Positions 14,465 through 54,581 of a stretch of 64,000 nt of DNA are shown here, in pieces. Where the stretch lies: NCBI GenBank assembly GCA_946536225.1, contig CAMNEE010000001.1, positions 333,484 to 397,483 on the forward strand, in the 5' to 3' direction. Made by a program: the position numbers and the translations under genes. Each line of letters opens with the position of its first letter. Position 1 is the stretch's first letter. The stretch is from an uncultured Bacillales bacterium (lineage in GTDB: Bacteria; Bacillota_I; Bacilli_A; RF39; UBA660). Under the pieces are notes generated by a model that ran no database searches, was not told where the DNA came from, and worked only from the letters and a program-made list of their open reading frames with translations.

Positions 14465-14496
14465 AATTATCTAATTGTGTAGAAAGAGATGATTAT

Positions 14497-16932
14497 ATGA
14501 TATTACCTAATATTTCTTTTCAAGTTCTTAGTTTTATATATTTAACAATGATTTCATTATTGTTTTTTACAAAGAAAAAAATTAGGAATAAAGATACAGA
14601 GATTTATACTTATTTAATTATTGTAAATCTTCTTATTTTAATAATTGATATATCATCTATATTTGCCTTAGTTTATAGTAATAATCAATTATTATTAGAT
14701 TTAACTTGTAAAGGTTATCTTGCAGGATTAATTATTTGGGTAGATATATTAACTGAATATGTTTGGTTAACAATTTGGAATAAGTCCAGAAAAAAAACTA
14801 GAGCAATATTTATAATATTATTAATGATTATTCAAAGTATTACTATATTTATGTTTCCACTTGAATATTATTGGGAAGGACCTGTTCTTTATATATCTAA
14901 AGGGGAAGCGATAATAGTTGCATATAGTATGTTTATATTATGTGCTCTTACGTGGGCAGTAAATGTAATTGTTATGCATAAGAAGGTATCAATAGAACTT
15001 ATTAAAGAAATAAATAAAAAAATCTATCCAGTGTTCTTATTTGTATTGTTTGGTATAGTAGGGGTTTTCTTACAGAAGATCTTTCCTCAATTAGTAATTA
15101 CTTCAAGTGTCTTAACACTTGTTACAATACTAATGTATCATACCATTGAAAACCCAGATGTTGATACAATCAAGATACTTGATAAAGCTAAAAAACAAGC
15201 CGAAGATAATAGTAAAGCTAAGAGTGACTTCTTAAGTAGTATGTCACATGAAATAAGAACACCTCTTAATGCTATTATTGGTTTTAGTAATTTTATAATT
15301 GACTGTGATAACTTAGAGGATGCTAAGGAAAATGCTCGCGATGTTGTTACTGCATCAACTACACTTCTTGAAACAGTAAATGGAATACTTGATATTAGTA
15401 AAGTTGAATCAGGTAAGATGGAAGTTGTTAATGATAACTATAACTTCTTTGATTTACTTGATGAAACAGTTAAACTTGCTAATGCAAGATTAGGAGACAA
15501 ACCATTAGAATTTGTTACTGATATTGATCAAAATATTCCTCATACTTTATATGGTGATAAATCAATAGTATATAAAATTATTATTAATATTCTTACTAAT
15601 GCCATTAAATATACTAATGAAGGAAGTGTTCATTATACTGTTAGTGGTATAAGTGAAGGAGATAAATGTAAAATAACAGTAAGTGTTAAAGATACTGGTA
15701 TTGGTATTAAAGAAGAAGACTTAAAAAGAATTTTTAATAAATTCCAAAGAGTTGATGAGAAAAAGACTAGTTCTATAGAAGGAACTGGTTTAGGTATGGC
15801 TATTACTAAAGAATTACTTGATTTAATAGGTGGTAGTATTGCTGTTGAATCAACATATGGTAAAGGTTCAACATTTACTGTTACTTTTGATCAAGTAATA
15901 AGTAATGTTACAATTGCTAATAAAAAGGTAGAAGTTGAAGAGGAAAGCAAATATAACTTTAGTGATAAAAATATCTTAGTTGTTGATGATAATAATTTAA
16001 ATCTAAAACTTGCAACTAAATTATTTGCTAGATATAATTGTGAGATTAAAACTGCTAAAAGTGGTTTTGAATGTTTAGATTTAATCGAAAAAGGTAATAA
16101 ATATGATATAATATTTTTGGATGATGTAATGCCTACTATGTTAGGAAGTGAAACACTAACAAGATTAAAGAGAATAGAGGGATTTAAAACTCCAGTTGTT
16201 TCTTTAACGGCAAATGCCATAGAAGGTGTTAAAGAAAAATATCTTAATTTAGGTTTTGATGATTATTTAGCAAAACCGATTGAGAAAAATAAATTAGAAG
16301 ATATTTTAGTTAAATTCTTAGTTAATAATACTGAAGCTAAGAGTATTTCTAATACAGTATTAAAATCTTCAAGTCCAGTTGAAGTAATAAACGAAACTGT
16401 TAAAGAAAGTATACTAAATAGTCCATCATCTAAGAATATAAGTATTAATGCAGGAGGTAATAAAATGGATGATAATATATTTGGTAATGCTGTTACCAAT
16501 AATGTAGGAATAGAGGTACAACCTACAAATCCAGATGAAGGAAAGGTTTTCTCGGATTATTCTGATAAACGTGTATTAGTTGTTGATGATAATAAACTAA
16601 ATTTAAAGGTCGCTATTAAATTCTTAGATAGATATCATTTCCAAACTGATGAAGCATATTCTGGTGAGGATTGTTTAAATAAAATTCAACAAGGTGAAAA
16701 ATACGATATTATATTCATGGATATAATGATGCCAACACTTAATGGTGTTGAAACATTCCATAGATTACAAGAAATAGAAGGTTTTGATGTACCTGTTGTT
16801 ATAGCTTTAACAGCTGATGCTGTTGAAGGTGCAAAAGAAAGATATTTAGCAGAAGGATTTGCTGAATATATATCAAAACCAATAGTAAGAGAACATTTAG
16901 ATCAAGTTCTTCATAAAATATTAGATAAATAG
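14497..16932 (+). CDS. Hybrid sensor histidine kinase paralog (same architecture, dual receiver)
   Basis: Paralog of the upstream kinase: 'SMSHEIRTPLNAIIGFS', 'DIIFLDDVMP' and 'DIIFMDIMMP'. 811 aa. Confidence 0.8.
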   Translation: MILPNISFQVLSFIYLTMISLLFFTKKKIRNKDTEIYTYLIIVNLLILIIDISSIFALVYSNNQLLLDLTCKGYLAGLIIWVDILTEYVWLTIWNKSRKKTRAIFIILLMIIQSITIFMFPLEYYWEGPVLYISKGEAIIVAYSMFILCALTWAVNVIVMHKKVSIELIKEINKKIYPVFLFVLFGIVGVFLQKIFPQLVITSSVLTLVTILMYHTIENPDVDTIKILDKAKKQAEDNSKAKSDFLSSMSHEIRTPLNAIIGFSNFIIDCDNLEDAKENARDVVTASTTLLETVNGILDISKVESGKMEVVNDNYNFFDLLDETVKLANARLGDKPLEFVTDIDQNIPHTLYGDKSIVYKIIINILTNAIKYTNEGSVHYTVSGISEGDKCKITVSVKDTGIGIKEEDLKRIFNKFQRVDEKKTSSIEGTGLGMAITKELLDLIGGSIAVESTYGKGSTFTVTFDQVISNVTIANKKVEVEEESKYNFSDKNILVVDDNNLNLKLATKLFARYNCEIKTAKSGFECLDLIEKGNKYDIIFLDDVMPTMLGSETLTRLKRIEGFKTPVVSLTANAIEGVKEKYLNLGFDDYLAKPIEKNKLEDILVKFLVNNTEAKSISNTVLKSSSPVEVINETVKESILNSPSSKNISINAGGNKMDDNIFGNAVTNNVGIEVQPTNPDEGKVFSDYSDKRVLVVDDNKLNLKVAIKFLDRYHFQTDEAYSGEDCLNKIQQGEKYDIIFMDIMMPTLNGVETFHRLQEIEGFDVPVVIALTADAVEGAKERYLAEGFAEYISKPIVREHLDQVLHKILDK

Positions 16933-19591: not shown

Positions 19592-21220
19592 ATGAAGAAA
19601 ATATATTTAATAGGATTTTTAATTGAACTATTAGTAATGAGTATTTTATATTATATGGCATTACCTGCAATGAATTTACATTCAACTGGTTTTTGGGCAT
19701 TTACTATATTTGCTTTATTACTATGGGGTTTTATTTGGACATTTATAAGATTAAGTCTAAATTTAGAAACATGTTTTGTTAAGAAAGGACGTAATTATAC
19801 TTTTAGAAAAACATCTAAAGGCAATAAATCATTTATACCATTTCTATTAGTTATAGTAATTGTAGCAGGTATATTGATTGTTAATTTATTCTGTTCACCA
19901 TTCTTTAATGCTAAATCTTACTCAAAGAGAATCGTGATAGATGAAACTGGAGACTTTATTAAAGACATTAAAGAAGTAGACTTTAATAGCCTACCTTTAC
20001 TTGACCGTGATTCAAGTGAGAAATTAGGAGACAGAGTAATGGGACAAATGAGTGATTTTGTATCTCAATACTATGTATCTAATCAATATACTCAAATAAA
20101 TTATAAAAACGATATTGTTAGAGTTACGCCTTTAGAATATGCTGACTTTATTAAATGGATATTTAATAGAAATGAAGGTGTAAAAGGATATATTAAAGTT
20201 AATTCAGTAAATGGTAATACTGAGTTAGTAAAACTAGAAAAGGGTATGAAATATATGCCATCTGCATACTTTAATGATAATCTTTATAGAAAGTTAAGAT
20301 TTAAATATCCAACTAAGATATTTGGAGAAGCTAAATTTGAAATTGATAATGAAGGAAAACCTTTCTGGATTGTTCCTACATATGGTTATATAGGTGTTGA
20401 ATGTAAGACTAAAGTAACAGGAGTTGTAATAATGGATCCAGTTACTGGAGAGTCTAAACTATATAAAATTGATAAAGTTCCTTCATGGGTAGATAATGCT
20501 TATAATGCTGAATTATTAATTGAACAAATTAATAACTGGGGTACTTATAGAGATGGATTCTTAAATAGTATATTTGGTCAAAAGAATGTTGTTAATACAA
20601 CAACTGGATATAACTATTTAGCAATGGATGATGATGTATATCTTTATACAGGTATTACATCTGTATTAAGTGATGAATCTAATCTTGGATTTATTCTTTC
20701 TAATATGAGAACAGGTAAGACTGTATTCTATTCAGTTCCTGGTGCTGAAGAGTATTCAGCTATGGCTTCTGCTGAGGGACAAGTTCAACAAATGAGTTAT
20801 GTTTCTACATTCCCATTATTAATTAATTTAAACAATAAACCAACATACCTTGTAAGCTTAAAAGATGCTGCTGGTTTAGTTAAAATGTATGGTTTTATAG
20901 ATGTAGCTGATTATCAAAAAGTAGTTGTTACAGACGCTTCTAGTGGCATTATAAAGGCATCTCAAAATTATTTAAACAAGTATGCTGATGAGATATCAGA
21001 AAGTCTACTTGTAACTAAGACTATTAAAGTTAAGAGAATTAGTAATGCTATTATAAATGGTAATACTTATTATTATATTACTGATAGTGATGATCATAGA
21101 TATAAGTTATCAATTGAATTAAGTGATACATTAGCATTTATAAGTGTTAATGATGAAATTAATATTGGTTACTATGAAACTGATAGTAGCATTATTGATG
21201 TAGTAAAAGTAATTAAATAA
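19592..21220 (+). CDS. Hypothetical membrane-anchored protein (N-terminal TM helices, large extracytoplasmic domain)
   Basis: AGGAGG RBS. N-terminal hydrophobic helices. 542 aa with no recognised motif. Confidence 0.45.
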   Translation: MKKIYLIGFLIELLVMSILYYMALPAMNLHSTGFWAFTIFALLLWGFIWTFIRLSLNLETCFVKKGRNYTFRKTSKGNKSFIPFLLVIVIVAGILIVNLFCSPFFNAKSYSKRIVIDETGDFIKDIKEVDFNSLPLLDRDSSEKLGDRVMGQMSDFVSQYYVSNQYTQINYKNDIVRVTPLEYADFIKWIFNRNEGVKGYIKVNSVNGNTELVKLEKGMKYMPSAYFNDNLYRKLRFKYPTKIFGEAKFEIDNEGKPFWIVPTYGYIGVECKTKVTGVVIMDPVTGESKLYKIDKVPSWVDNAYNAELLIEQINNWGTYRDGFLNSIFGQKNVVNTTTGYNYLAMDDDVYLYTGITSVLSDESNLGFILSNMRTGKTVFYSVPGAEEYSAMASAEGQVQQMSYVSTFPLLINLNNKPTYLVSLKDAAGLVKMYGFIDVADYQKVVVTDASSGIIKASQNYLNKYADEISESLLVTKTIKVKRISNAIINGNTYYYITDSDDHRYKLSIELSDTLAFISVNDEINIGYYETDSSIIDVVKVIK

Positions 21221-21264: not shown

Positions 21265-21296
21265 TCAAAAAAAAGAATAGTTATGAACTATTCTTA
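21265..21296 (-). terminator. Terminator for pilB (convergent)
   Basis: Hairpin aagaatagtt / aactattctt. On the minus strand it is followed by a T-run (an A-run at 21265-21272 on plus). Confidence 0.5.
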
Positions 21297-23285
21297 TATT
21301 TTTGTTTCATTTTGAATTGTTTCTGCTGCTTTATCAAATATGCTTGCCATGTTATTAACTGGAGCACTTGGAGTTACTGGTGTAACTGGAGTAACCGGTT
21401 TAGCAGGAGTACTAGGAGTCACAGGAGTAACTGGATTAACTGGAGTACTTGGAGTCACAGGAGTAACTGGATTAACTGGAGTACTTGGAGTCACAGGAGT
21501 AACTGGATTAACTGGAGTAGCAGCAGGAGTACTTGGTGTTACAGGTTTAATTGGTGTAACTGGAGTACTAGGTGTACTTGGAGTACTCATAAGAGGAGAA
21601 CTACTTAAGAAATCTGGTAATTTATTTGCTTCTTTAGTAATTACATCTTCTTTCTTTTCTTCAACTGGTTTTGTGTTAGCAGGAGGAGCGGCTACTGGAG
21701 GAGTTGGAACTTTTGGTTCTTCCTTTTTTACTTCAGTAACAGGAGTTTTAACTTCTTCCTTCTTTTCAGAAATAGAGTTTATTTCAGCTGCTTCAAGTTG
21801 TTCTTGTAATCCAAGTTGAGTATCTGCTCCCAAGTCATCATCTAAGTCTATTAGTTTTAATACTTCATCGAATGATGTATCTCCGTGAAGACATTTTTCA
21901 AGTCCATCTTCAAGCATCGTTTTAGTTCCACCTTCACCATATACTATTTTTCTTAGTTCATGTTTACCAACATTACCTGTTATAGCATCTCTTACGGCTT
22001 GGTTAAGTAAAAGAACTTCATGTACTGCGATACGTCCTCGATAACCTTTAGAACATTCTTTACATCCAACTGGTTCGTATATTTCATTTACATCTTTACC
22101 AATTGTTTTCTTAAACATTTCTTTTTCATATTCTGTTGTTGGTCTTAGTTTTTTACATTTACTACATAGACGTCTTGCAAGTTTTTGTGAAACGATACCA
22201 GATAGAGCAGAACCTAATAGATATCTTTCAACATTCATATCTGTTAAACGTTCAATTGTATTAAGCGCGTTGTTTGTATGTATTGTACTTAATACTAAGT
22301 GACCAGTTATGGCTGATCTAACAGCTATACGTGCAGTTTCTTCATCACGAATCTCACCAATCATGATAATATCAGGGTCTTGACGTAAGATAGAACGTAG
22401 TACTGTTGCAAATGTAAGTCCTATATCAGAGTTAACCATTACTTGGTTAATACCTTCAATATTCATTTCTACTGGGTCTTCTACAGTGATTATATTAGTT
22501 TCTTCAGTATTAAGAGCTTGTAGTATAGAATATACTGTAGTAGATTTACCTGAACCAGTAGCACCTGTTACTAAGATGATACCATTTGGTAGGGACATCA
22601 TTCTCTTAATTTTTTCGATATTGTAATCTGATATATCTATATGTTCAATACCTTGATCTGACATTGTATAATCCATGATACGCATAACGACTTTTTCGCC
22701 AAGGTTAGTAGGTAAGACAGATACACGGATATCAATAGGTTGATCATTAATAGTTGTTCTTATGGCACCATCTTGAGGTACACGTGATTCAGTAATATTC
22801 ATACCTGAAATAATTTTTACACGTGTTACAAGATTTCTTTTAACATATAAAGGTACAATAGAGTAGTCATGTAATTTACCATCTATTCTTATTCTTATTT
22901 TTATACCTTCTTCAAATGGGTCCATATGAATATCGGAAACACCTTTATCAATTGCATCTAGTATTATTGAGTTTACTATATCAGTTATTGGGGTATTATT
23001 GTAATCAAAGGTAACCATGCCTGTTAATCCTGCTTCTTTAGTAGCAGCACCAGCACCAGCTGTAGCATTTGATAAATCTAATTCTTGTGCTTTAGGTTCA
23101 TCTCCAGGAAGAGCAGGAGCGTCTCCAGGTAGTTTTTGAGTAACTTCATTTCCAGGTAAAGCTGTGTTGTTAACTGGTTTTACTTCTTCAGGATTTCCTG
23201 GTAAACTAGCTGCATGTGCTTCTGTTGATGGTGCAACAGGTGTTACTGGAATATTTGTATTTTCTTTATTATCCATGATTATCAA
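21294..23285 (-). CDS. pilB: Type IV pilus / type II secretion assembly ATPase (PilB/GspE/ComGA family) with Pro/Thr-repeat C-terminal tail
   Basis: Walker A '[11 protein letters not shown]', Walker B '[13 protein letters not shown]', His box '[13 protein letters not shown]' and a tetracysteine motif 'CSKCKK...CKECSKG'. The C-terminal ~200 aa are low-complexity with ([12 protein letters not shown])n. Confidence 0.85.
21361..21590. repeat. Tandem 36-bp coding repeats (3 perfect plus degenerate flanking copies) encoding the [12 protein letters not shown] repeat of the PilB tail
   Basis: ggagtcacaggagtaactggattaactggagtactt repeats exactly at 21415, 21451 and 21487, with degenerate copies on either side. 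Confidence 0.8.
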
Positions 23286-27869: not shown

Positions 27870-28391
27870 ATGAAAAAGAATGGTTTTACATTAGTAGAAT
27901 TACTTGCTGTTTTAGTTATTTTAGGATTATTAATTACACTTGCAGTGCCTAATATATTAGGTGTATCTAAGAATGTTAAAGAAAAGAGTTATCAAACTAA
28001 GATTGAAATAATTGAAAATGCTGCAATTACATATACAAGTGATACAGTTAAAAAGAGTCTTCAAAATCTAAACGATACTGCTATGGTTGGATATTATTGG
28101 ATAAATGTTAGTAAAGATAGTGATGATAATAAGACTGTTAATGCTAAAGCTACAAAGGATGCAACACATATTTATCCAGCTAAAGTTTTTACTGTTCAAG
28201 AACTTGCTGATGCTCGTGAAATTGATTATGATGATGAAGATAACAAAAGTGTAATTAATCCAGTTAATAATAAATCTATTAATGCATGTAATGTTTATGT
28301 TTATTTAAAAAACAATCGTGTATATTCTGTATTTGATAGAGTAAATTGTAATAGTAAAGTTAAGAGTACAGCTGTTAGGCTAGAAAAATAA
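27870..28391 (+). CDS. Type IV prepilin / pseudopilin (class III signal peptide)
   Basis: N-terminus 'MKKNG|FTLVELLAVLVILGLLITLAV' has F+1, E+5 and a hydrophobic helix. 173 aa. Extended -10 TGTTAATAT at 27845-27853. Confidence 0.8.
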   Translation: MKKNGFTLVELLAVLVILGLLITLAVPNILGVSKNVKEKSYQTKIEIIENAAITYTSDTVKKSLQNLNDTAMVGYYWINVSKDSDDNKTVNAKATKDATHIYPAKVFTVQELADAREIDYDDEDNKSVINPVNNKSINACNVYVYLKNNRVYSVFDRVNCNSKVKSTAVRLEK

Positions 28392-32056: not shown

Positions 32057-32099
32057 ATAAATATTCTAGTGTATAATTAAATCAGAATAGGTGAATAGT

Positions 32100-32996
32100 A
32101 TGAAAAAGAATGTATTTTATGTATTACTTTTGTTTGTTGCAGCAATAGTAATTGCTGGAAGTAGTTATATATATAGTTCTTACTCTCTTGATAGTTATCC
32201 TATTAATAAAGAAGGAAACTATTATATAACAGGAGGGAAGGGAGTAATACTTAATGGTATTAGTTGTTATTTATCTGACTATTCATCTAATAACTATGAT
32301 AGATCAACTTCTCTAATTAATAGTTATAGTAATCCAAATCATAAAGATACATATTTATTTAAAGTTAATAAATCCTCTAATGGATATAACTGTGATATGT
32401 TTCCTTATAAAGCAGGTACAGTTACTATCCAATGTAACAAAAATTATATAAATACTGGTGAGAGTACAAGTTGTACTGCTAAAAGTGTTACTTCAAGTGA
32501 TGGAGTAAAGTCTGTTAGTTTTAAAGTGTCTACAGATAAGTTAGTACTAAAGAACTTTTCTTCTAATTATTTTGAAGTAGTAGATAATAATGATAAAACT
32601 TATACTTTTGTTGCTAAGAGAAATAATCTACTTTCTAACACTGAATATCTACTTGCTGCTTTTGATATTGTTAATAATGGTGAGTATGATGGACATGATA
32701 ATAGTATTAGTTTTAATAATATTACTTATGTAGATAATATAGTGTCTTTAGATGTTGGTAGTTCAACTCTTGTATTTACTGAAGGAAAAGGTAGGGAAGA
32801 AGAGAATACAACTTCAAGTGGAACTACTACAACTACTGTTACACATGCAGTTACTGAAGGAATAGGTAATATGCCTAAGACAGGAGAGTCTCATGGTATT
32901 AGTGGAGTAGTTGCAGTTTTGTTAACTGTATTTATTGCAACTATGTCTATTGCACTTGGAATATTAATTACTACTATTTTTAAGAAAAAGAATTAA
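32100..32996 (+). CDS. Cell-surface protein with LPXTG-like sorting signal (MPKTG)
   Basis: Signal peptide. C-terminal 'NMPKTGESHG', then a hydrophobic stretch, then 'KKKN'. Confidence 0.55.
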   Translation: MKKNVFYVLLLFVAAIVIAGSSYIYSSYSLDSYPINKEGNYYITGGKGVILNGISCYLSDYSSNNYDRSTSLINSYSNPNHKDTYLFKVNKSSNGYNCDMFPYKAGTVTIQCNKNYINTGESTSCTAKSVTSSDGVKSVSFKVSTDKLVLKNFSSNYFEVVDNNDKTYTFVAKRNNLLSNTEYLLAAFDIVNNGEYDGHDNSISFNNITYVDNIVSLDVGSSTLVFTEGKGREEENTTSSGTTTTTVTHAVTEGIGNMPKTGESHGISGVVAVLLTVFIATMSIALGILITTIFKKKN

Positions 32997-45141: not shown

Positions 45142-47430
45142 ATGACTGAAAAGTTACCGGTTCTTATTTTAAGTAAACATGTTTTGCTTCCTTATCAAGA
45201 TCTTAAACTTGATTTAACTATGGATACTTCTAAGGAAGTAGTAGATAAAGCATGTGAAGAATACAACAAAAAAATTCTTGTTATTTTTAGTGGAGAATCT
45301 CAAGGTAAAAGAGATGTTTCAAAATTATCAGAAGTTGGTGTTATTGCTAAGATTACAAGAAAAATGCTTTTATCAAATGGTAATTTAAGAGTTATTTTAT
45401 CAGGACTTAATAGAGTTAAAGCAAAAGAATATTTTTATGAAGATGATAATTTATTTGCTAATGTAAAAAGAATTTATATTAGTTATCCTCCAACTGTTGA
45501 AGAAGAAGCTAATACTAAGAAAATAAAAGAATTTGCTCATAAATATATGGAAGAAACTCCAGGAGCAAGTAATTCAATTGAATCTTTAATTGATAATAGT
45601 AATGATCTAGATTATATAACTGACTTAGTTACTAATTTATGTGATTTAGATTTAGAAAAAAAGAAAAAATACATGGAAGAGTTTGATTATAATCAAAGAG
45701 CGGAAGATTTAATTAAAGATGTTTATAATGAACTAAGAGCAACTGAACTATTAAATAAGATTGATGATGATTTAAGAGATTCATTTGAAAAAGAACAAAG
45801 AGATTATATTATTAAACAAAAGATTTCTAAACTTTCTAAAGAAATAGGTGTTTCATTAGATAAGAATGAAGAAGTTTTATTATATGAAGAAAAGATTAAT
45901 AATCTTGAAATAAGTGAAAAGAGTAGAGTTAAACTTTTAAATGAAGTTAAGAAGTATTCGTTTACAAGTGAAACTAATCCAGATTCATCCGTTATTAGAA
46001 ACTACCTTGATACTGTAATAAGTCTACCTTGGAATAGTTTTTCTAAAGATGAAACTGATTTAAAAAGAATTAGAAAAGCATTAGATGCTAGTCACTATGG
46101 ACTAGAAGAAGTAAAGCAAAGAATTATAGAGTTTATTGCAATTAAGAAACAAAGTAGTAAACTTAGTTCTCCAATTATTTGTTTAGTTGGTCCTCCTGGA
46201 ACTGGTAAAACAACACTTGGTGCATCTATTGCAAATGCTTTAAATAGAGAGTTCTTAAAGATAAGCGTAGGTGGACTTAATGACTCAACTGAGTTAACAG
46301 GACACAAACGAACTTATCTTGGATCAAGTCCTGGTGTAATTATGCAAGGTATTAAGAAATGTGGATACTCTAACCCTGTTATCTTAATTGATGAAGTTGA
46401 TAAGATGGTTAAAGACTATCAAGGAGACCCTGCAGCTGTATTACTAGATATATTAGATCCAAAACAAAATACTAGCTTTGTAGACTTTTATATTGAAGAA
46501 CCTTTTGATTTATCGAAAGTAATGTTTATATTAACTGCTAATGATATTAAAGATATTCCTCCTATGTTAAGAGATAGACTTGAAGTTATTGAAGTATCTT
46601 CTTATACAGAAGAAGAAAAAATAGATATAGCTAAGAAATACTTACTTCCTAATATATTTGAAGAATATAATATGAAGAAAATAAAACTTACTGATGATGC
46701 TTTAAGACTTGTAATTGATGGATATACTAAAGAATCAGGAGTACGTAATTTAGATAGAACATTAAAGAAAATAGTTAGAAATATGCTTGTTAATGATAAA
46801 CAAGGTAAAACTTTAACTGTTGATTTAGTAGGAGAAATACTTGGACCAATTAAATATAATTATTCAATGGTTAAAAAGATTCATCCAGGTATTGCATCTA
46901 CTTTAGGAGTTACTCCTTATGGTGGTGTTATTATTAATTTTGAAGCAATTGATTTACCAGGGAACGGAAAACTTATTATGACTGGTAATGTTGTTTCTTC
47001 AGTTGAGGAGTCTGCAAGAGTTGCGCTTAATTATATAATTAGAAATGCTAAAACATTTGGACTTAAACAAGAAACAATTATGTCTAAGAATATTCATATT
47101 AATTCACTAGTATATTCAATAAAGAAATCTGGTACATCTGGAGGAATGGCACTTGCTAGTGCAATACTTTCACTTTTACTTGATAAAGAAATAAGCGCAG
47201 ATGTAGCATTTACTGGTGAAATAGATTTACATGGAGATATATTAAAAGTAGGTGGAATCAAAGAAAAAATAATTGGTGCCTACAATAATAATTATAAAAA
47301 AGTTTTTATTCCTGAAGATAATAGAAGTGACTTGATAAGAGTACCTGAAAATGTTAAAGAACAAGTAGAAATAGTATGTGTTGAAACATTTGAAGATGTT
47401 TATAAAGATTTATTTAAAAAGCATAAGTAA
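45142..47430 (+). CDS. lon: ATP-dependent Lon protease
   Basis: LON N-domain, Walker A 'GPPGTGKTT', and S16 site 'KKSGTSGGMALASAILS'. ATG 45142 follows GAAGGAGGAAG; the track start at 45124 is TTG. Confidence 0.9.
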   Translation: MTEKLPVLILSKHVLLPYQDLKLDLTMDTSKEVVDKACEEYNKKILVIFSGESQGKRDVSKLSEVGVIAKITRKMLLSNGNLRVILSGLNRVKAKEYFYEDDNLFANVKRIYISYPPTVEEEANTKKIKEFAHKYMEETPGASNSIESLIDNSNDLDYITDLVTNLCDLDLEKKKKYMEEFDYNQRAEDLIKDVYNELRATELLNKIDDDLRDSFEKEQRDYIIKQKISKLSKEIGVSLDKNEEVLLYEEKINNLEISEKSRVKLLNEVKKYSFTSETNPDSSVIRNYLDTVISLPWNSFSKDETDLKRIRKALDASHYGLEEVKQRIIEFIAIKKQSSKLSSPIICLVGPPGTGKTTLGASIANALNREFLKISVGGLNDSTELTGHKRTYLGSSPGVIMQGIKKCGYSNPVILIDEVDKMVKDYQGDPAAVLLDILDPKQNTSFVDFYIEEPFDLSKVMFILTANDIKDIPPMLRDRLEVIEVSSYTEEEKIDIAKKYLLPNIFEEYNMKKIKLTDDALRLVIDGYTKESGVRNLDRTLKKIVRNMLVNDKQGKTLTVDLVGEILGPIKYNYSMVKKIHPGIASTLGVTPYGGVIINFEAIDLPGNGKLIMTGNVVSSVEESARVALNYIIRNAKTFGLKQETIMSKNIHINSLVYSIKKSGTSGGMALASAILSLLLDKEISADVAFTGEIDLHGDILKVGGIKEKIIGAYNNNYKKVFIPEDNRSDLIRVPENVKEQVEIVCVETFEDVYKDLFKKHK

Positions 47431-47443
47431 TTATGCTTTTTTT
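47417..47443 (+). terminator. Rho-independent terminator after lon
   Basis: aaaagcataa-gtaa-ttatgctttt followed by T-run. Confidence 0.7.
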
Positions 47444-47456
47444 GTTGTCTATCGTA

Positions 47457-47485
47457 TTGTTATATTAAACTTCTTAATTTATAAT
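47457..47485 (+). promoter_or_regulatory. Putative promoter of the giant-pilin operon (TTGTTA-17-TATAAT)
   Basis: -35 at 47457-47462 and -10 at 47480-47485. Confidence 0.4.
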
Positions 47486-47511
47486 ATTGTATAGAATAGG
47501 TGTGATATAGA

Positions 47512-48675
47512 ATGAAGGATAAAAACGGATTTATTGCTACATCAGTTTTGTATGCTTTTTTACTTTGTTTCCTTACTTTATTCTTAGCTTATATGGCTAA
47601 CTATATTCAAAATAAATTATTGATTGATAGGGTTGCTGATTTAGCAAAAGAAGATTTATCAAAATATAATAATACTTATGTTACAGATCTTGCTTTAGGA
47701 GATTATGTAATTTTCGATACAATTGATCCTGAAGGAGCAGATGCTTTATCAGGAGTTAAAGTGTATGATTCTCCAATTAGTCCAGATGCTAGATGGATTC
47801 TATTTAAAATAGAAGGTGGAGATTTAATAGATAAAAATGAGGGTAAGTATGAAGACTCAGTATACTATTTTGTATCTGATTCAACTGCTCAAAAATATCA
47901 ACCTTTAGTTAATTCACTTGCACTTGATAATAGTGGAGCTTATGCACCTATTACAGATAATACTAATTTAAATACTAATACATACAGTCCAAATTTAAAA
48001 AATATTGAAAGAGTTTTAAACAGTCATATATATTATTCATCAAGAAAGTATTGGTCTTCAGCAGAAGCGGATGAAACTGCAAAAACTGCGTATAAATATG
48101 CATTCCCATATACTGCAAATGGTGGAATAACAGATATTAGATATTTAAATGATGATGACTTAAATGAAATATTAAGTTTAAATGATAATGTTGTTGATGC
48201 AATTATGGATCAAGGAGATAAGTTTGTATTCTGGAACACTGGTACTTATTTTGACAGTACAAGACGTGGATTTACGGTTTATAAAAGAGAATATTTAGAA
48301 TTCCTTGGACCAACTGATACTAATAGTGGTACTAATCCAGCCGAAGTTAACAGAATATGTCATACAAGTGGTGCTTCTTCTAATGGAGGTATTATAGACT
48401 TTAGCAATAATAGTGGTAATGACTTAAGTTATGGGCATTTATATTCAGGTATAATTGGACAAAACTTTGTTGATTATTGCTATTATGTAACAAATGATAC
48501 TTTAGGAGATTGCCAAGATAGTAGTAATTATATTTGTAGAAGCAGTAATGGAGAGTATCCTCCTAGATTTGTTGTGGTATTAACTGTTAATAAAGGTAAT
48601 CTTGTTAGAAATGGTAGAGCGGACTCTGGAAATGGAACAGCTACATTACCATATTTATTTACAACGGGGGCATAG
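47512..48675 (+). CDS. Pilin-like protein lacking Glu+5 (PilX/ComGG/GspK-like minor pseudopilin), 387 aa
   Basis: 'MKDKNG|FIATSVLYAFLLCFLTLFLAYMA' is a class III signal-like N-terminus with Ser at +5. First of three co-oriented, tightly spaced genes. Confidence 0.55.
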   Translation: MKDKNGFIATSVLYAFLLCFLTLFLAYMANYIQNKLLIDRVADLAKEDLSKYNNTYVTDLALGDYVIFDTIDPEGADALSGVKVYDSPISPDARWILFKIEGGDLIDKNEGKYEDSVYYFVSDSTAQKYQPLVNSLALDNSGAYAPITDNTNLNTNTYSPNLKNIERVLNSHIYYSSRKYWSSAEADETAKTAYKYAFPYTANGGITDIRYLNDDDLNEILSLNDNVVDAIMDQGDKFVFWNTGTYFDSTRRGFTVYKREYLEFLGPTDTNSGTNPAEVNRICHTSGASSNGGIIDFSNNSGNDLSYGHLYSGIIGQNFVDYCYYVTNDTLGDCQDSSNYICRSSNGEYPPRFVVVLTVNKGNLVRNGRADSGNGTATLPYLFTTGA

Positions 48676-48677
48676 AT

Positions 48678-51464
48678 ATGAGAAAGAAAAATGGATTTGT
48701 TTTAATCGAAACATTAATTGTAGTTTTATTATTAACAGTTACTTTGATGTCACTTTATTCTTCTTTTGCATATTTAGTTAATAAATCAAAAGAAAGAAAT
48801 AATCATGATTCAATAGAAACAATATATAAAACTTACTATGTTAAAAGTTTAATTGATGCAACTTATGCTACAGCTGCAACATCTCGTTTTAAAGAATCAT
48901 TTAGATATTATGCAAGTACATATTCTACAAATGATACTGGATTAAACCCAATATGTAAGGCATTCGATTATGCAGGTAATAAACTTTCTTATTCCAATTA
49001 TATAAGTAATTATGATTCAAGCGATAAGATAGCAAGTTTTATAGTTTGCTCATATGATGAATATAAAACTATTGCATCATATACAGAAGAAGAATTAAAT
49101 GCTAATCCTTCTTTAAAAGAAAAAGCAAAAATTATCAAGAATGATCCATTGTTTAATGCGATTGCTACATATGGAATTGAAAAAATGTATTATATAAATA
49201 CTAATAGATTACAAAAGAGCCAAGGTATGGCTAAAGAAGCTTTAAATGCTGCATTTGATGCATCATCTATTAATTATGTAAATACACTAGATAGTAATGA
49301 AAATAATGACAAACTTATTATTAAATATGAAAAACCATTTGTTTATCCAGCAGGTTTTGATACTACTGATTTAGAGCTACTTATAAGTAAAGAAGCCTCT
49401 CATTCATCTGTATCTATGACAGATGTAAGTAAAAAAGAAGGCTCTTATCCAGTTTTCTTCTATCCTAAAGAAGGAGAAAGAGGAGAAGCGTTCTCGGGTG
49501 GAGATGTCTTCAATGGTGAGTCATTTACAGTTAGCGCCGGATTATTTACAGATTTAGAGGAATTTGGTGGTAAAACAATTATTGGATGGTCAACTAAGTC
49601 AGGTCTTACAGCTGATGAATTAAATACTTGCGTTGAGAGTACAAATAATGGTACTGCAACTGAAGTTCTATGTTATTATGCTAATACAAGTGTAAAAGCA
49701 ACAGATAATAATAGAACACTTTATGCTGTTTGGTGTGGTGATAATACTATTGATGGTATTATGAAATGTAATTCAGGAGTACTTGATAATTTAAAAGAAA
49801 CTGTTGTTGATGGTGTTACAACTTATTATTATGATGGAAAAAATAGTAATAAACCATTAGGAAACTATTATGTTTATACAGAAAGCAAAGTTAATGGTGA
49901 ACCAAAGCTTGTTGGTCAACCATGCTTCCAATTAATGAGTAATTTTGGATCTTCAACAGGGTTTAAAGCTATATATGCTGGTTTATATGATTCTGCCACG
50001 GGATGTGATGTTACAAATAAATCTATAAATAATTCAAGTTATGCTTTTTCTAATGCTACTGGTATTGCAGGTGCTGGATATACATATTATAGAGATAGTA
50101 AAAGAATAGAAGCACCAATGGATTATTGGTCATTTTTAAGATCGTTCAATATTTATAAATATACTGGTAGTATGTATGCTAATTCTTCAGATGCTCCTTT
50201 AAAACTTGGCGAATATGTATATTTATCCAAAGGTTATAAAAATAAGAATGGAGTTTTTTCGTTAGATGATACTGCCGTTAGGGTATTATTTGATGATTAC
50301 TTAACAAATGATTATAAAGATTTAATTAATATGATTTCGTCTCAAGGTTTAAAATATTTTTGCATGGATTCGTCTAAAACTGAGTGTGGTAATGAAATTG
50401 CTCGATTAAATGGTTCTATTACAACCCAATCTACTGGTGGTAAACTAATTATAAAATATAATTATGACTCATTTAAACAACCTTTTGATCCTAACAGCAT
50501 GTCAAAATATAAAAGTCAGTTTTCATCAGAAATAAGATATGATAGTGAAAAAGGACAATATTACTTGCCAGCGGAAACTAGTGTAATATATTCTATGACC
50601 GATGCTCAAACACCAAGTAAAATGTTTAAAAATAGGTATTATTGTACTGGTAAATTAGTATCAGATGATGCTGGTGTTACTAATTTATATTGTAATAATG
50701 GTTATACGTTTATTTTTGGTATGTCTAGTAGTGGTACTGGAACTTCATACTATAGAATAATTTACAGTAATAGTGACTCTCCTGAGTCTACTCCTCCAAA
50801 TTTATTTAATTATACATTTGGTTCGGTTGAACAAAGAACAAAGGATTCAAATGCAAAAGCAGCTATTGATAAATGGTTTGAAAAATATTTTTCTCATTAT
50901 GACGAAATACTTGATACAAAGGCTGTTTATTGTAATGACTTTTCACCTAAAGTATATTCATATGGCAATTCAGAATATAGTTGGTATAATGGTTTTACTA
51001 ATAGTTATTTCTACTATAATGGTTCGACTGATATTTATTCTCCACAAAATTCCGATAAATTTTACTATGGCGCTAATAATGAGAAGAGGTTTAGTCAGTT
51101 TACTGCGTGTGATACTCAATATGCCTATAGTTATAAGGATAGTGATAATCTAGGTAATCATTTGCTTAAATATCCTGTTGGTATGCTTACTGGGCAAGAA
51201 TATTTTGCTGTTGGAGCTTCTACTAAGAATTATTTGAGTGACTCATCAACGTATTTTTTAATGAATCCTTACCGTTATGGTTCGTCAAGTGGTTCTATTT
51301 ATGGACATTTAACTCTTGATAGTCGCGAATATAGTTTAGGTATTGATTATTGGAACACAAATAGTTCTTATTGGTTAAGACCAGTTATATCTATAAAAAT
51401 TGATGCTCCAATTTCAGGTGGTGCAGGAACTGTTAAAGATCCATTTATTTTATATGGTAAATAG
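48678..51464 (+). CDS. Giant modular type IV prepilin-like protein (928 aa)
   Basis: 'MRKKNG|FVLIETLIVVLLLTVTLM' has F+1 and E+5, a canonical prepilin peptidase site. A Ser/Thr/Tyr-rich beta-type extracellular region follows. Confidence 0.7.
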   Translation: MRKKNGFVLIETLIVVLLLTVTLMSLYSSFAYLVNKSKERNNHDSIETIYKTYYVKSLIDATYATAATSRFKESFRYYASTYSTNDTGLNPICKAFDYAGNKLSYSNYISNYDSSDKIASFIVCSYDEYKTIASYTEEELNANPSLKEKAKIIKNDPLFNAIATYGIEKMYYINTNRLQKSQGMAKEALNAAFDASSINYVNTLDSNENNDKLIIKYEKPFVYPAGFDTTDLELLISKEASHSSVSMTDVSKKEGSYPVFFYPKEGERGEAFSGGDVFNGESFTVSAGLFTDLEEFGGKTIIGWSTKSGLTADELNTCVESTNNGTATEVLCYYANTSVKATDNNRTLYAVWCGDNTIDGIMKCNSGVLDNLKETVVDGVTTYYYDGKNSNKPLGNYYVYTESKVNGEPKLVGQPCFQLMSNFGSSTGFKAIYAGLYDSATGCDVTNKSINNSSYAFSNATGIAGAGYTYYRDSKRIEAPMDYWSFLRSFNIYKYTGSMYANSSDAPLKLGEYVYLSKGYKNKNGVFSLDDTAVRVLFDDYLTNDYKDLINMISSQGLKYFCMDSSKTECGNEIARLNGSITTQSTGGKLIIKYNYDSFKQPFDPNSMSKYKSQFSSEIRYDSEKGQYYLPAETSVIYSMTDAQTPSKMFKNRYYCTGKLVSDDAGVTNLYCNNGYTFIFGMSSSGTGTSYYRIIYSNSDSPESTPPNLFNYTFGSVEQRTKDSNAKAAIDKWFEKYFSHYDEILDTKAVYCNDFSPKVYSYGNSEYSWYNGFTNSYFYYNGSTDIYSPQNSDKFYYGANNEKRFSQFTACDTQYAYSYKDSDNLGNHLLKYPVGMLTGQEYFAVGASTKNYLSDSSTYFLMNPYRYGSSSGSIYGHLTLDSREYSLGIDYWNTNSSYWLRPVISIKIDAPISGGAGTVKDPFILYGK

Positions 51465-51478
51465 AAAGGACAAATAAT

Positions 51479-54400
51479 ATGAAAAGAAATTATAATCAAT
51501 CTGGTATGACTATTATTGAAGTATTAGTAAGTGTAATAATTATTTCATTTGTAATGAGCTTATTATTTGTTCTTCTATTACAAGTACAAAATGCTAATAG
51601 TGCTGCTAAGAAGAAATCAAATCTTTTGATTTCTCAAGCAGTAATTACTAAAGCAATTGAGCAAGATATGATTGAAATAGGTGTTAGTGCTGTTTCAGCA
51701 TGTACATATGATGATTTTAATATGTTTAGTAATCAGATTGATGAAAGCGAACCATATGCTTGTGCTAGGTTAGAGTTTAATAAATCATATGATATTAATG
51801 ATTTGGGTTACATCATGGTTTATAAGCAAAATGAAAATGCTTATGATAATGCCACTTGGGTAGTTAAATATGCAAGAGGTTATTATGATAACTGTGTTAT
51901 GGGAAATTCACCAAGTGATGGTAGTTCTTGGATTGAGTCATATAGTGTTGTTCAAAAACTTAATAATGATGTAACACTTGGTAGTTTTGTTGATAGAGTT
52001 ACAGGTAAAACTAGATATGTTTCTCTTAATTATTCAGCAGAATATGATCCTACTGAAAAGTATAGTAGACAAAAAGTTAATTCTGCTAATATAGTTATTC
52101 CTATTGTTGATAGTAATAATTATCACTATGATATAGATTTATCTTTCTCATTTAGATTATATTACCCAGATGAGACTGATCCTTCTAAAGCAAAACAAAG
52201 AATAGATTTTGTTTGCGATGACGAGGGAGTTGATTGTGTATGTACTTCTTCTAAGGATGAAAATTGTAATAAAACATATTCATCAAATCTTCCTGGAAGA
52301 ACAAAAAGTGAAACAGATAAGACATATAATTACACTTGTACTGCAACTAAGAAGTCTGTTTCTACTTCAATGGGAATTAACAAAGATTTCTTGACATTAA
52401 GTAATGTTAATAAGGCAGGTATTGTGCCAGATAATGTTAGAAAAATTACGTTTAGTAATTCGTTGGACTCTAATGGGTTTGGTGGATATGGTATAGATGT
52501 ATCTCTTGCTCAAAACAAGACATCTATTTTATATTACGAATTTGACGATAATACAGATACATACGATATAATGATTGGTCAATCTGGTGGCGTTACTGTT
52601 GCTGGTAAGAGCATGGCTAACATGTTTGCTGATTGTATAAGGTTAGAATCCATTAATTTTAAAAATTTTAGTTCCAATGGAATTGAAGATATGAAGAATT
52701 TATTTAAAAATTGTGAAAAACTTACTAATGATGGTATAGACGGATTTTTAAATCTAAATTTCGATGGTGTAAGAAAAATGTCTGCTATGTTTAAGGGATG
52801 TAAACGTATTACTGTATCTCCATTTAGACAATCATCTGGTGATGCATTTAATTTAAGTAGTTTAGTGGATGCTTTTGAAATGTTTTCTAATAGTGGATTA
52901 ACTGAGTTTATTTATTATAAGGATTTGTGGTGTGATAATGTTACATCATTCTTACGTTTGCTTAGTGATTCAAATATACAAACTGTTGTAATTGGAGATA
53001 TTTCTCGTAGTGTTTCTATGAATAATTTGAATTCTATGGCGCATATGCTTGATAATTGTAATAGTTTGACAACATTTAAACTTATTAATTGTAATTTTCC
53101 AGCTTTAAATACTATTGAAAGAATTTGTTTTCATGTAAGCTCATCCAATGTTTCGGTTATGAGTGCCTTAGGAACATATAATTCTGAAACACATGTATAT
53201 TCTGGTGGTGGAATGCAATTTGTAAATTTATACACTCCTAATTTGGAAAATCTTTCTTATGCATTTTACTATGAAAAAATTAATTCAAGTTTGAATATTA
53301 GTAATTGGACGATTGTAAATAATTATAATGCTGACCATATGTTTTTTGGAGCAGGTTTAACAGCGTTTTCATTTGGCGATGATGCGTTTGGAACAGAAGG
53401 ATATGGTGGTCCATACAATGGCTCTTATATGTTTTATAATTGTAGTATAAAGAAATTAATTAATAATGATACAAGAGAATCGGTATTAATTCATGCTAAT
53501 TATATGTTTTATTATAATTATTTGGATACTATTGATGGTGGTTTTTATTTACCAAATGTAGTTGATTGCACTTCTATGTTTAGTACAGCAGGACCTTCTT
53601 CCAAGGCTGTATTTAACTATATTAAAGAAGGATCTTTATCCAAGTGTGAAAAGTTTACTAATATGTTTTTGGCTACACGTTATCAGGTTATTTATTTAGA
53701 CAATATTAATAGTGAAGTAACCGAAGGTACTGTTTCATGTGTTAATATGTTTGCTGCTGGTAGTTCGAGTGGTAAAAACACTTTGAAAAATGTTTATATG
53801 AGAAATGCTAATTTTAAAACGAGAGTTTCTATGTCTTCAATGTTTGCATATAATTGGTCACTTAGATTTGTTGACTTTGACTATGTTAAAGGGGACTGGG
53901 ATAATAACAAGTATTATGACGGAACATATACATATTATGGAATGGATACTCCTGATACTAGTGATGATACAAATATTGATCATATAGGAAATTTTGAAAA
54001 TTTCTTTGATAAAGATTCCTCGGCGGCTATACCGGGTTCTATGGAAAAAATGTTTTTTAACTGTTCTTCTTTAAGGGGACTTCCAGACAATTTCTTTAGC
54101 ACGATGAATATAAAGAGTGTATCTAACTGTACCGCCATGTTTGAATATGCTGGTGTTGAAGCAATTTTAGGTGGTATAAGAAATAAATTTGGAGTATTAT
54201 TAGATTTTGATTTTAATTCAAATCCTGTTTTACCTTATATGTTTCATGGTGTTGATAATTTCTCTTATATTAAATTACCAAAATTAACTAAGTCTACTAA
54301 TCTCGTAGATATGTTTAATAATGTTGGAGGTAATAGTGATCGTATAACAGATTTAACCATTGATTTATCTTCTTTAACAACTAATCTTGATACTTTTATT

Positions 54401-54562
54401 TCTACAGGATTTAGTGGAAAAGGACAAGTACCAATTAAGATTATTACTAAAGCAAATCAAACAGTAGCTTGTAGCGTTTATAATACTCTTAAGAGTAAAT
54501 ATCCAAGTGTAACTGTTACATATACAGATGGTGTTACTGTCTTAGATCCAACAAAATGCTAA
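51479..54562 (+). CDS. Giant modular type IV prepilin-like protein (1027 aa) with C-terminal DUF285-like 'MF..C..L' repeat domain
   Basis: 'MKRNYNQSG|MTIIEVLVSVIIISF' has M+1 and E+5. From aa ~380 there are ≥8 repeats of the form 'MFADCIRLESINF', 'MFKGCKRIT', 'MLDNCNSLTTF', 'MFYNCSIKKL', 'MFFNCSSLRGL' and 'MFEYAGVEA'. Confidence 0.7.
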   Translation: MKRNYNQSGMTIIEVLVSVIIISFVMSLLFVLLLQVQNANSAAKKKSNLLISQAVITKAIEQDMIEIGVSAVSACTYDDFNMFSNQIDESEPYACARLEFNKSYDINDLGYIMVYKQNENAYDNATWVVKYARGYYDNCVMGNSPSDGSSWIESYSVVQKLNNDVTLGSFVDRVTGKTRYVSLNYSAEYDPTEKYSRQKVNSANIVIPIVDSNNYHYDIDLSFSFRLYYPDETDPSKAKQRIDFVCDDEGVDCVCTSSKDENCNKTYSSNLPGRTKSETDKTYNYTCTATKKSVSTSMGINKDFLTLSNVNKAGIVPDNVRKITFSNSLDSNGFGGYGIDVSLAQNKTSILYYEFDDNTDTYDIMIGQSGGVTVAGKSMANMFADCIRLESINFKNFSSNGIEDMKNLFKNCEKLTNDGIDGFLNLNFDGVRKMSAMFKGCKRITVSPFRQSSGDAFNLSSLVDAFEMFSNSGLTEFIYYKDLWCDNVTSFLRLLSDSNIQTVVIGDISRSVSMNNLNSMAHMLDNCNSLTTFKLINCNFPALNTIERICFHVSSSNVSVMSALGTYNSETHVYSGGGMQFVNLYTPNLENLSYAFYYEKINSSLNISNWTIVNNYNADHMFFGAGLTAFSFGDDAFGTEGYGGPYNGSYMFYNCSIKKLINNDTRESVLIHANYMFYYNYLDTIDGGFYLPNVVDCTSMFSTAGPSSKAVFNYIKEGSLSKCEKFTNMFLATRYQVIYLDNINSEVTEGTVSCVNMFAAGSSSGKNTLKNVYMRNANFKTRVSMSSMFAYNWSLRFVDFDYVKGDWDNNKYYDGTYTYYGMDTPDTSDDTNIDHIGNFENFFDKDSSAAIPGSMEKMFFNCSSLRGLPDNFFSTMNIKSVSNCTAMFEYAGVEAILGGIRNKFGVLLDFDFNSNPVLPYMFHGVDNFSYIKLPKLTKSTNLVDMFNNVGGNSDRITDLTIDLSSLTTNLDTFISTGFSGKGQVPIKIITKANQTVACSVYNTLKSKYPSVTVTYTDGVTVLDPTKC

Positions 54563-54581
54563 TTTATATTAGCATTTTTTT
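54554..54581 (+). terminator. Rho-independent terminator after pilin operon
   Basis: aaatgctaat-ttat-attagcattt followed by T-run. Confidence 0.7.

Follow-up and report, generated by a model that had tools for sequence, protein, structure and literature searches.

What kind of system is formed by three tightly packed genes that encode unusually long proteins with prepilin-like N-termini and that lie among housekeeping genes of a low-GC member of the Bacilli? The question is raised by a stretch of 64,000 nucleotides (nt) from an uncultured Bacillales bacterium (GenBank assembly GCA_946536225.1, contig CAMNEE010000001.1, positions 333,484 to 397,483 of the forward strand; GTDB lineage Bacillota_I, Bacilli_A, RF39, UBA660), hereafter the window, with a GC content of ~27%, in which the genes here called g1 (387 residues), g2 (928 residues) and g3 (1027 residues) follow one another. 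An initial annotation, made from the sequence, had taken them for giant modular type IV pilins and for the most likely undescribed system in the window. We find that the three proteins are best read, from their sequences, as type IV (minor) pilins, and we consider it probable that the operon supplies the set of minor pilins for a type IV filament of this low-GC Bacilli lineage, that is, a complex located at the filament tip and showing binding modules. The window's open reading frames (ORFs) of at least 100 residues were scanned with Pfam. Use was also made of annotations already available for the source, a 696-kb metagenome scaffold (ENA ERZ28612941) that the window matches, as it does a JGI contig. 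A word-indexed search for homologs gave 27 (g1), 15 (g2) and 21 (g3) clusters; related loci are designated L009 to L015, and homologous proteins or clusters carry identifiers of the type P0002.

The prepilin character of the trio lies in the N-termini. The only hydrophobic segment of each protein is the N-terminal one, and each has a short, positively charged leader ending in glycine; the earlier description of these leaders as class III signals, with a glutamate at position +5 in g2 and g3 only, agrees exactly with the sequences (Table 1). When the window was scanned in six frames with a permissive prepilin motif, there were five matches, namely the three genes of the trio, a 173-residue pilin encoded from position 27870, and one false positive inside Lon. 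In residue alignments of 26 (g1), 14 (g2) and 16 (g3) homologs, and with one exception among the g2 orthologs that is described below, the positions that define such a signal were invariant (Gly6, Phe7 and Glu11 in g2; Gly9, Met10, Thr11, Ile12 and Glu14 in g3; Gly6 and Phe7 in g1, where position +5 is an invariant serine, Ser11, and not a glutamate), and since the residues at -1, +1 and +5 are kept across the alignments, the prepilin signals are not due to chance. The g3 protein matches the Pfam family N_methyl (PF07963) with 24.0 bits, above the gathering cutoff of 21.2. Among NCBIfam models, and below their curated cutoffs, g2 weakly resembles ComGD and g3 weakly resembles PilV and ComGE, mostly over the generic N-terminal helix only. 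The AlphaFold model of g1 (predicted local distance difference test score, pLDDT, 80.5; predicted template-modelling score, pTM, 0.77) has an N-terminal helix of 47 residues (4-50) followed by a beta-rich globular part. In orthologs that accompany Lon and MutS proteins 74-75% and 82% identical to those of the window, g1 is 37-39%, g2 28-29% and g3 32-39% identical, and the first ~60 residues of all three are nearly unchanged; a conserved alpha-1 helix followed by a divergent globular part is, at the level of alignment, the pattern of pilins. The extracellular location expected for g2 and g3 fits their richness in cysteine (14 residues in g2, 13 of them invariant, and 23 in g3).

Several results weigh against this assignment. 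The g1 protein has no match to PF07963 or to any other pilin family of Pfam or NCBIfam, and among solved minor pilins, such as GspK, PilX or GspI, none matches its model. The g2 protein reaches 13.1 bits against PF07963, below the cutoff, with weak matches in 11 of 14 family members; its AlphaFold model (helix 6-38, then strands) is of moderate quality (pLDDT 66.6), with a low-confidence N-terminal helix, and a Foldseek search with this model returned no match. One g2 ortholog, from a metagenome-assembled genome (MAG; L009, 10001-12568), has an alanine at -1 (MRRKNA/FVLAETL), which may reflect an error of sequencing or else a variant tolerated by the peptidase. Furthermore, none of the window's ORFs with 100 or more residues, and nothing in ~10 kb of flanking sequence on each side, encodes PilC (T2SSF), PilD (Peptidase_A24) or PilMNO, so that the absence of pilC, pilD and pilMNO next to the trio, already pointed out in the initial annotation, holds over a much wider interval, and the processing and assembly of the trio would rest on genes elsewhere.

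Some of these observations would also suit an explanation in which the N-termini are plain signal anchors and the proteins are membrane-tethered surface adhesins, neither cleaved by a peptidase nor polymerised. Besides the alanine at -1 and the lack of a peptidase gene in the window and the flanks examined, it would draw on g1, with neither Glu5 nor a pilin-family match, and on the relatives of the added part of g2, since most of the complete ones inspected use ordinary signal peptides or anchors. A mere anchor, however, would need none of the residues (glycine at -1, an aromatic residue or methionine at +1, glutamate at +5) that g2 and g3 keep over deep divergence, and g3 scores above the N_methyl cutoff. 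In addition, the genes stay together as a set of three in which one member is Glu5-less, as is the case in known tip complexes, their small homologs are of minor-pilin size, and genes for a PilB-type ATPase and for canonical pilins are close by, which makes the anchor explanation highly improbable.

The size of g2 and g3 becomes understandable from sister lineages (loci L010 and L011, with the distant g1 homologs P0057 and P0061), where a g1 of 336-358 residues is followed by small counterparts of g2 (161-184 residues, N-terminus KNG/F..xET) and of g3 (246-249 residues, N-terminus G/M[ST]I.E). In L011, lon is found upstream of g1, with two other genes between them, and in both loci the small g3 is followed by an opposite-strand membrane gene and then by a ylbL-like gene, with mutS next in L011. 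The alignment of the small g2 homologs with g2 runs over their whole length and covers its residues 1 to ~245 (E = 3e-19), and the whole of a 246-residue small homolog aligns with residues 1-268 of g3 (E = 8e-25). Because the small homologs equal the N-terminal modules, the giant versions of g2 and g3, which span 860-1040 residues, have arisen by C-terminal additions (~680 and ~760 residues, respectively) in one clade. The point of addition is constant in the g2 type: the 188-residue P0187 stops a few residues past the conserved HSS motif that closes the module, the 583-residue P0150 carries the same g2-type pilin module with another addition, containing immunoglobulin-like repeats, and in g2 and P0150 the join is always directly after the module's conserved C-terminal motif. 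The suggestion that large functional modules had been grafted onto a pilin stalk is thus borne out by the small versions at the syntenic locus, which correspond to the N-terminal modules of g2 and g3. The description of all three proteins as outsized is right for g2 and g3 but not for g1, whose size (336-399 residues in the family) is ancestral and not an expansion.

The small trio of the sister lineages has some neighbours of its own, none of which is present at the locus in the window's clade. Upstream of it are genes for a LysM protein and for an unannotated protein of ~275-281 residues (L010 171-1743; L011 1827-3333), and the opposite-strand gene between the small g3 and ylbL (L010 9860-10693; L011 5931-6770) encodes a multi-pass membrane protein.

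The part added to g3 could be assigned to DUF285 (PF03382; 31.2 bits, cutoff 25), a family also carried by the g3 orthologs, and consists of an array of BspA-like leucine-rich repeats (LRR) in which at least 11 'MFxxCxxL' units, ~25-30 residues apart, occupy residues 382-935; in remoter g3 matches, DUF285 is found together with LRR_5 and other LRR families. For g2, as for g1, there is no direct Pfam assignment of the module in any family member at E up to 1, and no member of either family matches DUF6273 (PF19789) at this threshold. An exhaustive HMMER search with the g2 family profile, nevertheless, gave 3,847 proteins at E <= 1e-3. Prepilin N-termini were confined to the g2 family itself, and the matches covered profile positions ~670-890 (residues ~700-928 of g2), often in 4-13 copies per protein; a subset matched positions 351-888 as a single block, as in P0096, where a vWA domain and a Listeria-Bacteroides repeat precede the block. 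The domain is common among conventional surface proteins. In P0065 and P0071 the g2-profile matches enclose Pfam DUF6273 matches. We therefore describe the final domain of g2 as DUF6273-like, a relationship that is transitive in sequence (via P0065 and P0071) and that the predicted fold, of the kind of C-type-lectin-like domains (CTLDs), would support. The beta-rich insert that precedes it (residues ~473-700) is confidently modelled (pLDDT ~90) and gave nothing significant in full-length searches. A DUF6273/CTLD-like domain is also possible in the globular part of g1; the alignment of this part with the C-terminal domain of g2 is confined to the last 30 residues (hhalign E = 8.5e-4, probability 24%), which is suggestive only of homology between the two.

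The DUF6273-like domain of g2 falls inside a segment that varies strongly among otherwise almost identical strains. Between strain L015 and the window, identity is 98-100% in lon, in g1, in the pilin module of g2, and from g3 onwards in all that lies downstream; within g2 the identity declines to 94-95% over 49250-50000 and to 68-78% over ~50000-51464, returning to 99% exactly past the g2 stop codon. Among six close g2 alleles, residues 1-250 are 85-100% identical and residues 441-928 are 55-69% identical. A diversity-generating retroelement acting on the CTLD-like domain was considered as the source of this variation and rejected: there is no second copy or template repeat of the g2 3' region within the window, the substitution spectrum of the variable segment is symmetric, without adenine bias, and at ~1.5 kb the segment is far too long; no ORF of at least 100 residues in the window belongs to a reverse-transcriptase family. 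Judged from the allele alignments, the variation is allelic replacement or divergence. Replacement of the distal part of g2 among near-identical strains would point to selection that favours either a change in the ligands recognised or evasion of phages or antibodies.

Table 1. Positions of the trio, its modules and signals, and of filament-related genes in the window; a slash marks the predicted prepilin cleavage site.
Feature	Position	Strand	Description
g1	47512-48675	+	387 residues; MKDKNG/FIATS, without Glu5; prepilin-like
g2	48678-51464	+	928 residues; MRKKNG/FVLIETL
g3	51479-54562	+	1027 residues; MKRNYNQSG/MTIIEVL
g2 pilin module	48678-49415	+	Residues 1 to ~246; alpha/beta region ending at the conserved HSS[MVI] motif; matches homologs of 161-188 residues
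g2 linker	49428-49577	+	Residues 251-300; low-confidence (disordered), pLDDT <50
g2 added cassette	49809-51461	+	Residues ~378-928: first domain, beta-rich insert ~473-700, DUF6273-like C-type-lectin-like domain ~722-928
Strain-hypervariable segment	49998-51464	+	g2 residues ~441-928; 68-78% nucleotide identity, >=98% on both sides
g3 pilin module	51479-52282	+	Residues 1-268; Cys-rich motif at its end
g3 DUF285/BspA-like LRR array	52610-54298	+	Residues ~378-940; >=11 'MFxxCxxL' units
lon terminator-like hairpin	47416-47443	+	AAAAAGCATAA-GTAA-TTATGCTTTTT plus TT (T-run); read off the sequence, unscored; separates lon from the trio
Sigma-70-like promoter candidate	47457-47485	+	TTGTTA-17-TATAAT, 10/12 matches
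Terminator-like hairpin of the trio	54553-54581	+	11-bp AT-rich stem and U7; overlaps the g3 stop codon
PilB/GspE-type T2SSE ATPase	21294-23285	-	T2SSE 409 bits; candidate motor of the same filament
ComGC/GspG-like prepilin	27870-28391	+	173 residues, MKKNG/FTLVELL; N_methyl 29 bits; candidate major pilin of the same filament

The trio is flanked by lon on one side and by a ylbL-like gene (PDZ and Lon_C domains) and then mutS on the other, and the order lon, g1, g2, g3, ylbL, mutS is the same in all related loci of the window's clade. As the initial annotation had it, the three genes are co-directional and tightly packed: 2 nt separate g1 from g2 and 14 nt separate g2 from g3, with a Shine-Dalgarno-like sequence in each gap. 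That the trio is a transcription unit of its own, apart from the machinery genes, is supported. Of the promoter and terminator previously ascribed to it, the terminator stands on its folding energy (-10.1 kcal/mol, z = -3.78; a consensus terminator scanner overlooked this hairpin because it has too few G-C pairs), and the promoter candidate is retained solely for its position, given that promoter-like matches are rarer in the window than in shuffled sequence (31 vs 52.9).

Two further genes of a putative filament, both anticipated in the initial annotation, lie in the window at a distance from the trio. One is the T2SSE ATPase, which scores 472 bits with the GspE, 465 with the PilB and 263 with the ComGA model, all below the equivalog cutoffs, and which is the last gene of a string recU - class A penicillin-binding protein - pilB and not part of a pilus operon. 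Its long Pro/Thr/Val-rich low-complexity tails (the first ~90 residues at one end; residues ~480-663 at the other, where repeats resembling 'PVTPSTP' occur) are odd for a cytoplasmic motor, and its annotated TTG start may be wrong, since the exact sequence is absent from the protein collection. The other is the 173-residue prepilin, which stands alone, with the GTPase genes engB and der on either side. Since the trio, the ATPase and the small pilins each stand in a separate housekeeping context, the filament genes are scattered singly among core genes. Among the remaining ORFs of at least 100 residues, the Pfam scans and the scaffold annotation show housekeeping genes and histidine kinases.

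A near-identical strain encodes a further N_methyl pilin, of 181 residues, with truncated paralogs ~1.5 kb past the 3' end of the window. In this locus (L014 10884-12190; 99.7% identical, beginning ~340 nt past the window's 3' end) the 181-residue pilin is accompanied by a 139-residue paralog without signal and helix and by a 45-residue ORF that consists of the hydrophobic pilin-like helix only; the truncated paralogs may be pilin pseudogenes or silent cassettes.

Three other features of the region may be recorded here. At least seven hybrid histidine-kinase/receiver genes (HisKA, HATPase_c and Response_reg in varied combinations) form a tandem array within ~25 kb (window 1-1560 and 12005-16932; L013 2662-9944). 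A 301-residue predicted surface protein (32091-32996) has at its C-terminus MPKTGE, then hydrophobic residues and finally KKKN, an LPXTG-like sortase signal with an unusual first residue, and weakly matches an NCBIfam family of LPXTG surface proteins. A 542-residue protein with N-terminal membrane helices and no Pfam or NCBIfam match (19592-21220) is encoded convergently with the pilB-like gene.

The filament genes could also be taken to indicate a short Com-type or type-II-secretion-like pseudopilus that would span no more than the cell wall, with the modules held at the cell surface or aiding the capture of DNA or other cargo. The 173-residue pilin scores best with the ComGC and GspG models, the ATPase matches the ComGA model over its full length (cutoff 300 bits), the weak ComGD and ComGE resemblances of g2 and g3 point the same way, and neither a PilT-like retraction ATPase nor PilMNO was seen within the window. 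The Com matches, however, are all below the curated cutoffs and mostly in the generic N-terminal helix, and the ATPase scores higher with GspE and PilB than with ComGA. Com systems, moreover, are normally encoded in one comG operon and have minor pilins of ~100-150 residues (Table 1 of PMC10191384), and strain-variable lectin-like and LRR modules suit adhesion to a ligand better than DNA uptake. A pseudopilus is thus unlikely.

For the type IV filament with a binding tip that we prefer, the following sequence of events can be proposed. A prepilin peptidase encoded elsewhere would cleave all three proteins after the conserved glycine, and the N-terminal helices would hold g1, g2 and g3 together in the membrane. 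The trio would then, on the model of HIJK and PilABC, prime assembly as a tip complex that the Glu5-less g1 enters before g2 and g3, forming the cap; tip or priming complexes with a Glu5-less cap subunit have precedents (PMC10191384; PMC9934059). The PilB-like ATPase would polymerise a small major pilin beneath the complex, for which the 173-residue pilin is a candidate. The tip would in this way display the DUF285 LRR solenoid of g3, the DUF6273-type lectin-like cassette of g2 and, probably, a second lectin-like domain in g1, and since g2 and g3 are pilin modules with large extra domains, it would act as a multivalent adhesin.

A fuller proposal, which we put forward tentatively, as possible rather than probable, is that of a pilus tip made up entirely of binding subunits (two lectin-like, DUF6273-type, and one LRR solenoid), in which the outermost g2 cassette is swapped between co-existing strains like a phage receptor-binding protein, and which arose by the addition of ~700 residues to each of two minor pilins in one clade of gut Bacilli with dispersed filament genes.

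Modular pilins are a widespread, described class, counting over 1,200 proteins that fall into 264 architectures (PMC8179133), and a three-minor-pilin operon is known from Streptococcus sanguinis, where the Glu5-less PilA, PilB (vWA, 50.5 kDa) and PilC (lectin, 52.8 kDa) have been modelled as an adhesive tip complex (PMC8179133; PMC9934059). The trio resembles PilABC in its monoderm host, in the operon of three minor pilins of which one lacks Glu5, and in the two others, each with a class III signal and a binding module that a linker joins to a short pilin module. It is unlike PilABC in the size of g2 and g3, about twice that of the ~50-kDa PilB and PilC; in its modules, which are of the DUF6273/CTLD and DUF285 LRR types here and vWA and ConA-like lectin domains there; in its large Glu5-less g1, which has no GspI-like match, whereas PilA is GspI-like and ~16 kDa; in the position of the operon between lon and mutS and not in a pil locus; in the hypervariability of the distal g2 cassette; and in the absence of detectable sequence homology. 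We conclude that the trio is an enlarged version of the S. sanguinis-type design and not a new kind of system or mechanism, so that the initial view of it as undescribed does not hold.

Nor can it be maintained that the domain content is without parallel. Dataset S1 of the modular-pilin catalogue lists the combination IPR012902 (N_methyl)-IPR005046 (DUF285) in 9 single-copy and 4 triple-copy proteins and in further combinations (Raynaud et al., 2021; PMC8179133), and g3 has exactly this architecture, with three g3 orthologs on record for both domains (PF07963 for the N-terminus); the catalogue is a count of domains, in which these proteins are uncharacterised. DUF6273 (PF19789) is not in that catalogue (Raynaud et al., 2021, Dataset S1). 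The claim that nothing near this size is known fared better, since both g2 and g3 exceed the 860 residues of the most extreme multi-domain modular pilin cited (PMC8179133), but it does not extend to g1.

In concept, the trio is also comparable to GspK-GspI-GspJ of the type II secretion system and to PilVWX (with PilY1), where co-encoded minor pilins start assembly, with a Glu5-less cap and a tip effector. It differs from them in the lack of any fold or sequence match for g1, in having three subunits and not four, and in effector domains that are fused to the pilins and not carried by a separate PilY1-type protein. The resemblance could go further than analogy, with the trio being a direct homolog of the GspK-GspI-GspJ/PilX-V-W core (g1 as K, g2 as I and g3 as J). 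Glu5 is missing from g1 alone, as in K subunits, the ancestral sizes of ~340, 170 and 250 residues resemble those of the K, I and J subunits, and g3 weakly matches PilV. Profile searches with all three families, at full length, against PDB sequences, however, gave nothing at E up to 1, and we regard direct homology as very unlikely.

Other described proteins share single traits with g2 and g3. CofB and TcpB of type IVb pili and ComZ of Thermus are about half the size of g2 and g3, carry unrelated domains and are single proteins, not members of such a trio. Like g2 and g3, they consist of a pilin module to which beta-rich or solenoid domains have been added, and they are located at the tip, with adapter or ligand-binding roles (PMC8179133). 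The DUF6273 CTLDs of the T. ramosa IgA peptidase (N-terminal domain) and of the phage 'tentaclin' receptor-binding proteins, to which the last domain of g2 appears related, transitively by sequence and by fold, are variable ligand-binding scaffolds; the g2 domain differs from them in that it sits on a pilin and varies by replacement of alleles and not through a diversity-generating retroelement.

Among 185,579 species-representative genomes, the g2 family is confined to three MAGs, all labelled as uncultured 'Bacilli' or 'Bacillales'; for one of these the stated origin is goat rumen. The host is a gut bacterium, probably of the rumen. No protein name was found in public sources for the homolog clusters of g1, g2 and g3. 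The co-encoding of three minor pilins, one of them Glu5-less, is kept in all related loci.

The organism is uncultured and the functions proposed for the trio are predictions. The locus nevertheless offers a natural before-and-after series for the origin of modular pilins, with small (161-249 residues) and giant (860-1040 residues) versions at the same locus and a third, different addition. With g2 and g3, the size range known for pilins reaches ~1,000 residues, and a DUF6273-type lectin-like cassette would join the modules that pili display. The locus also suggests that a pilus-displayed module can be a hypervariable site at the level of strains, which bears on colonisation specificity, on the pressure exerted by phages and antibodies, and on the tracking of strains in the gut and rumen.

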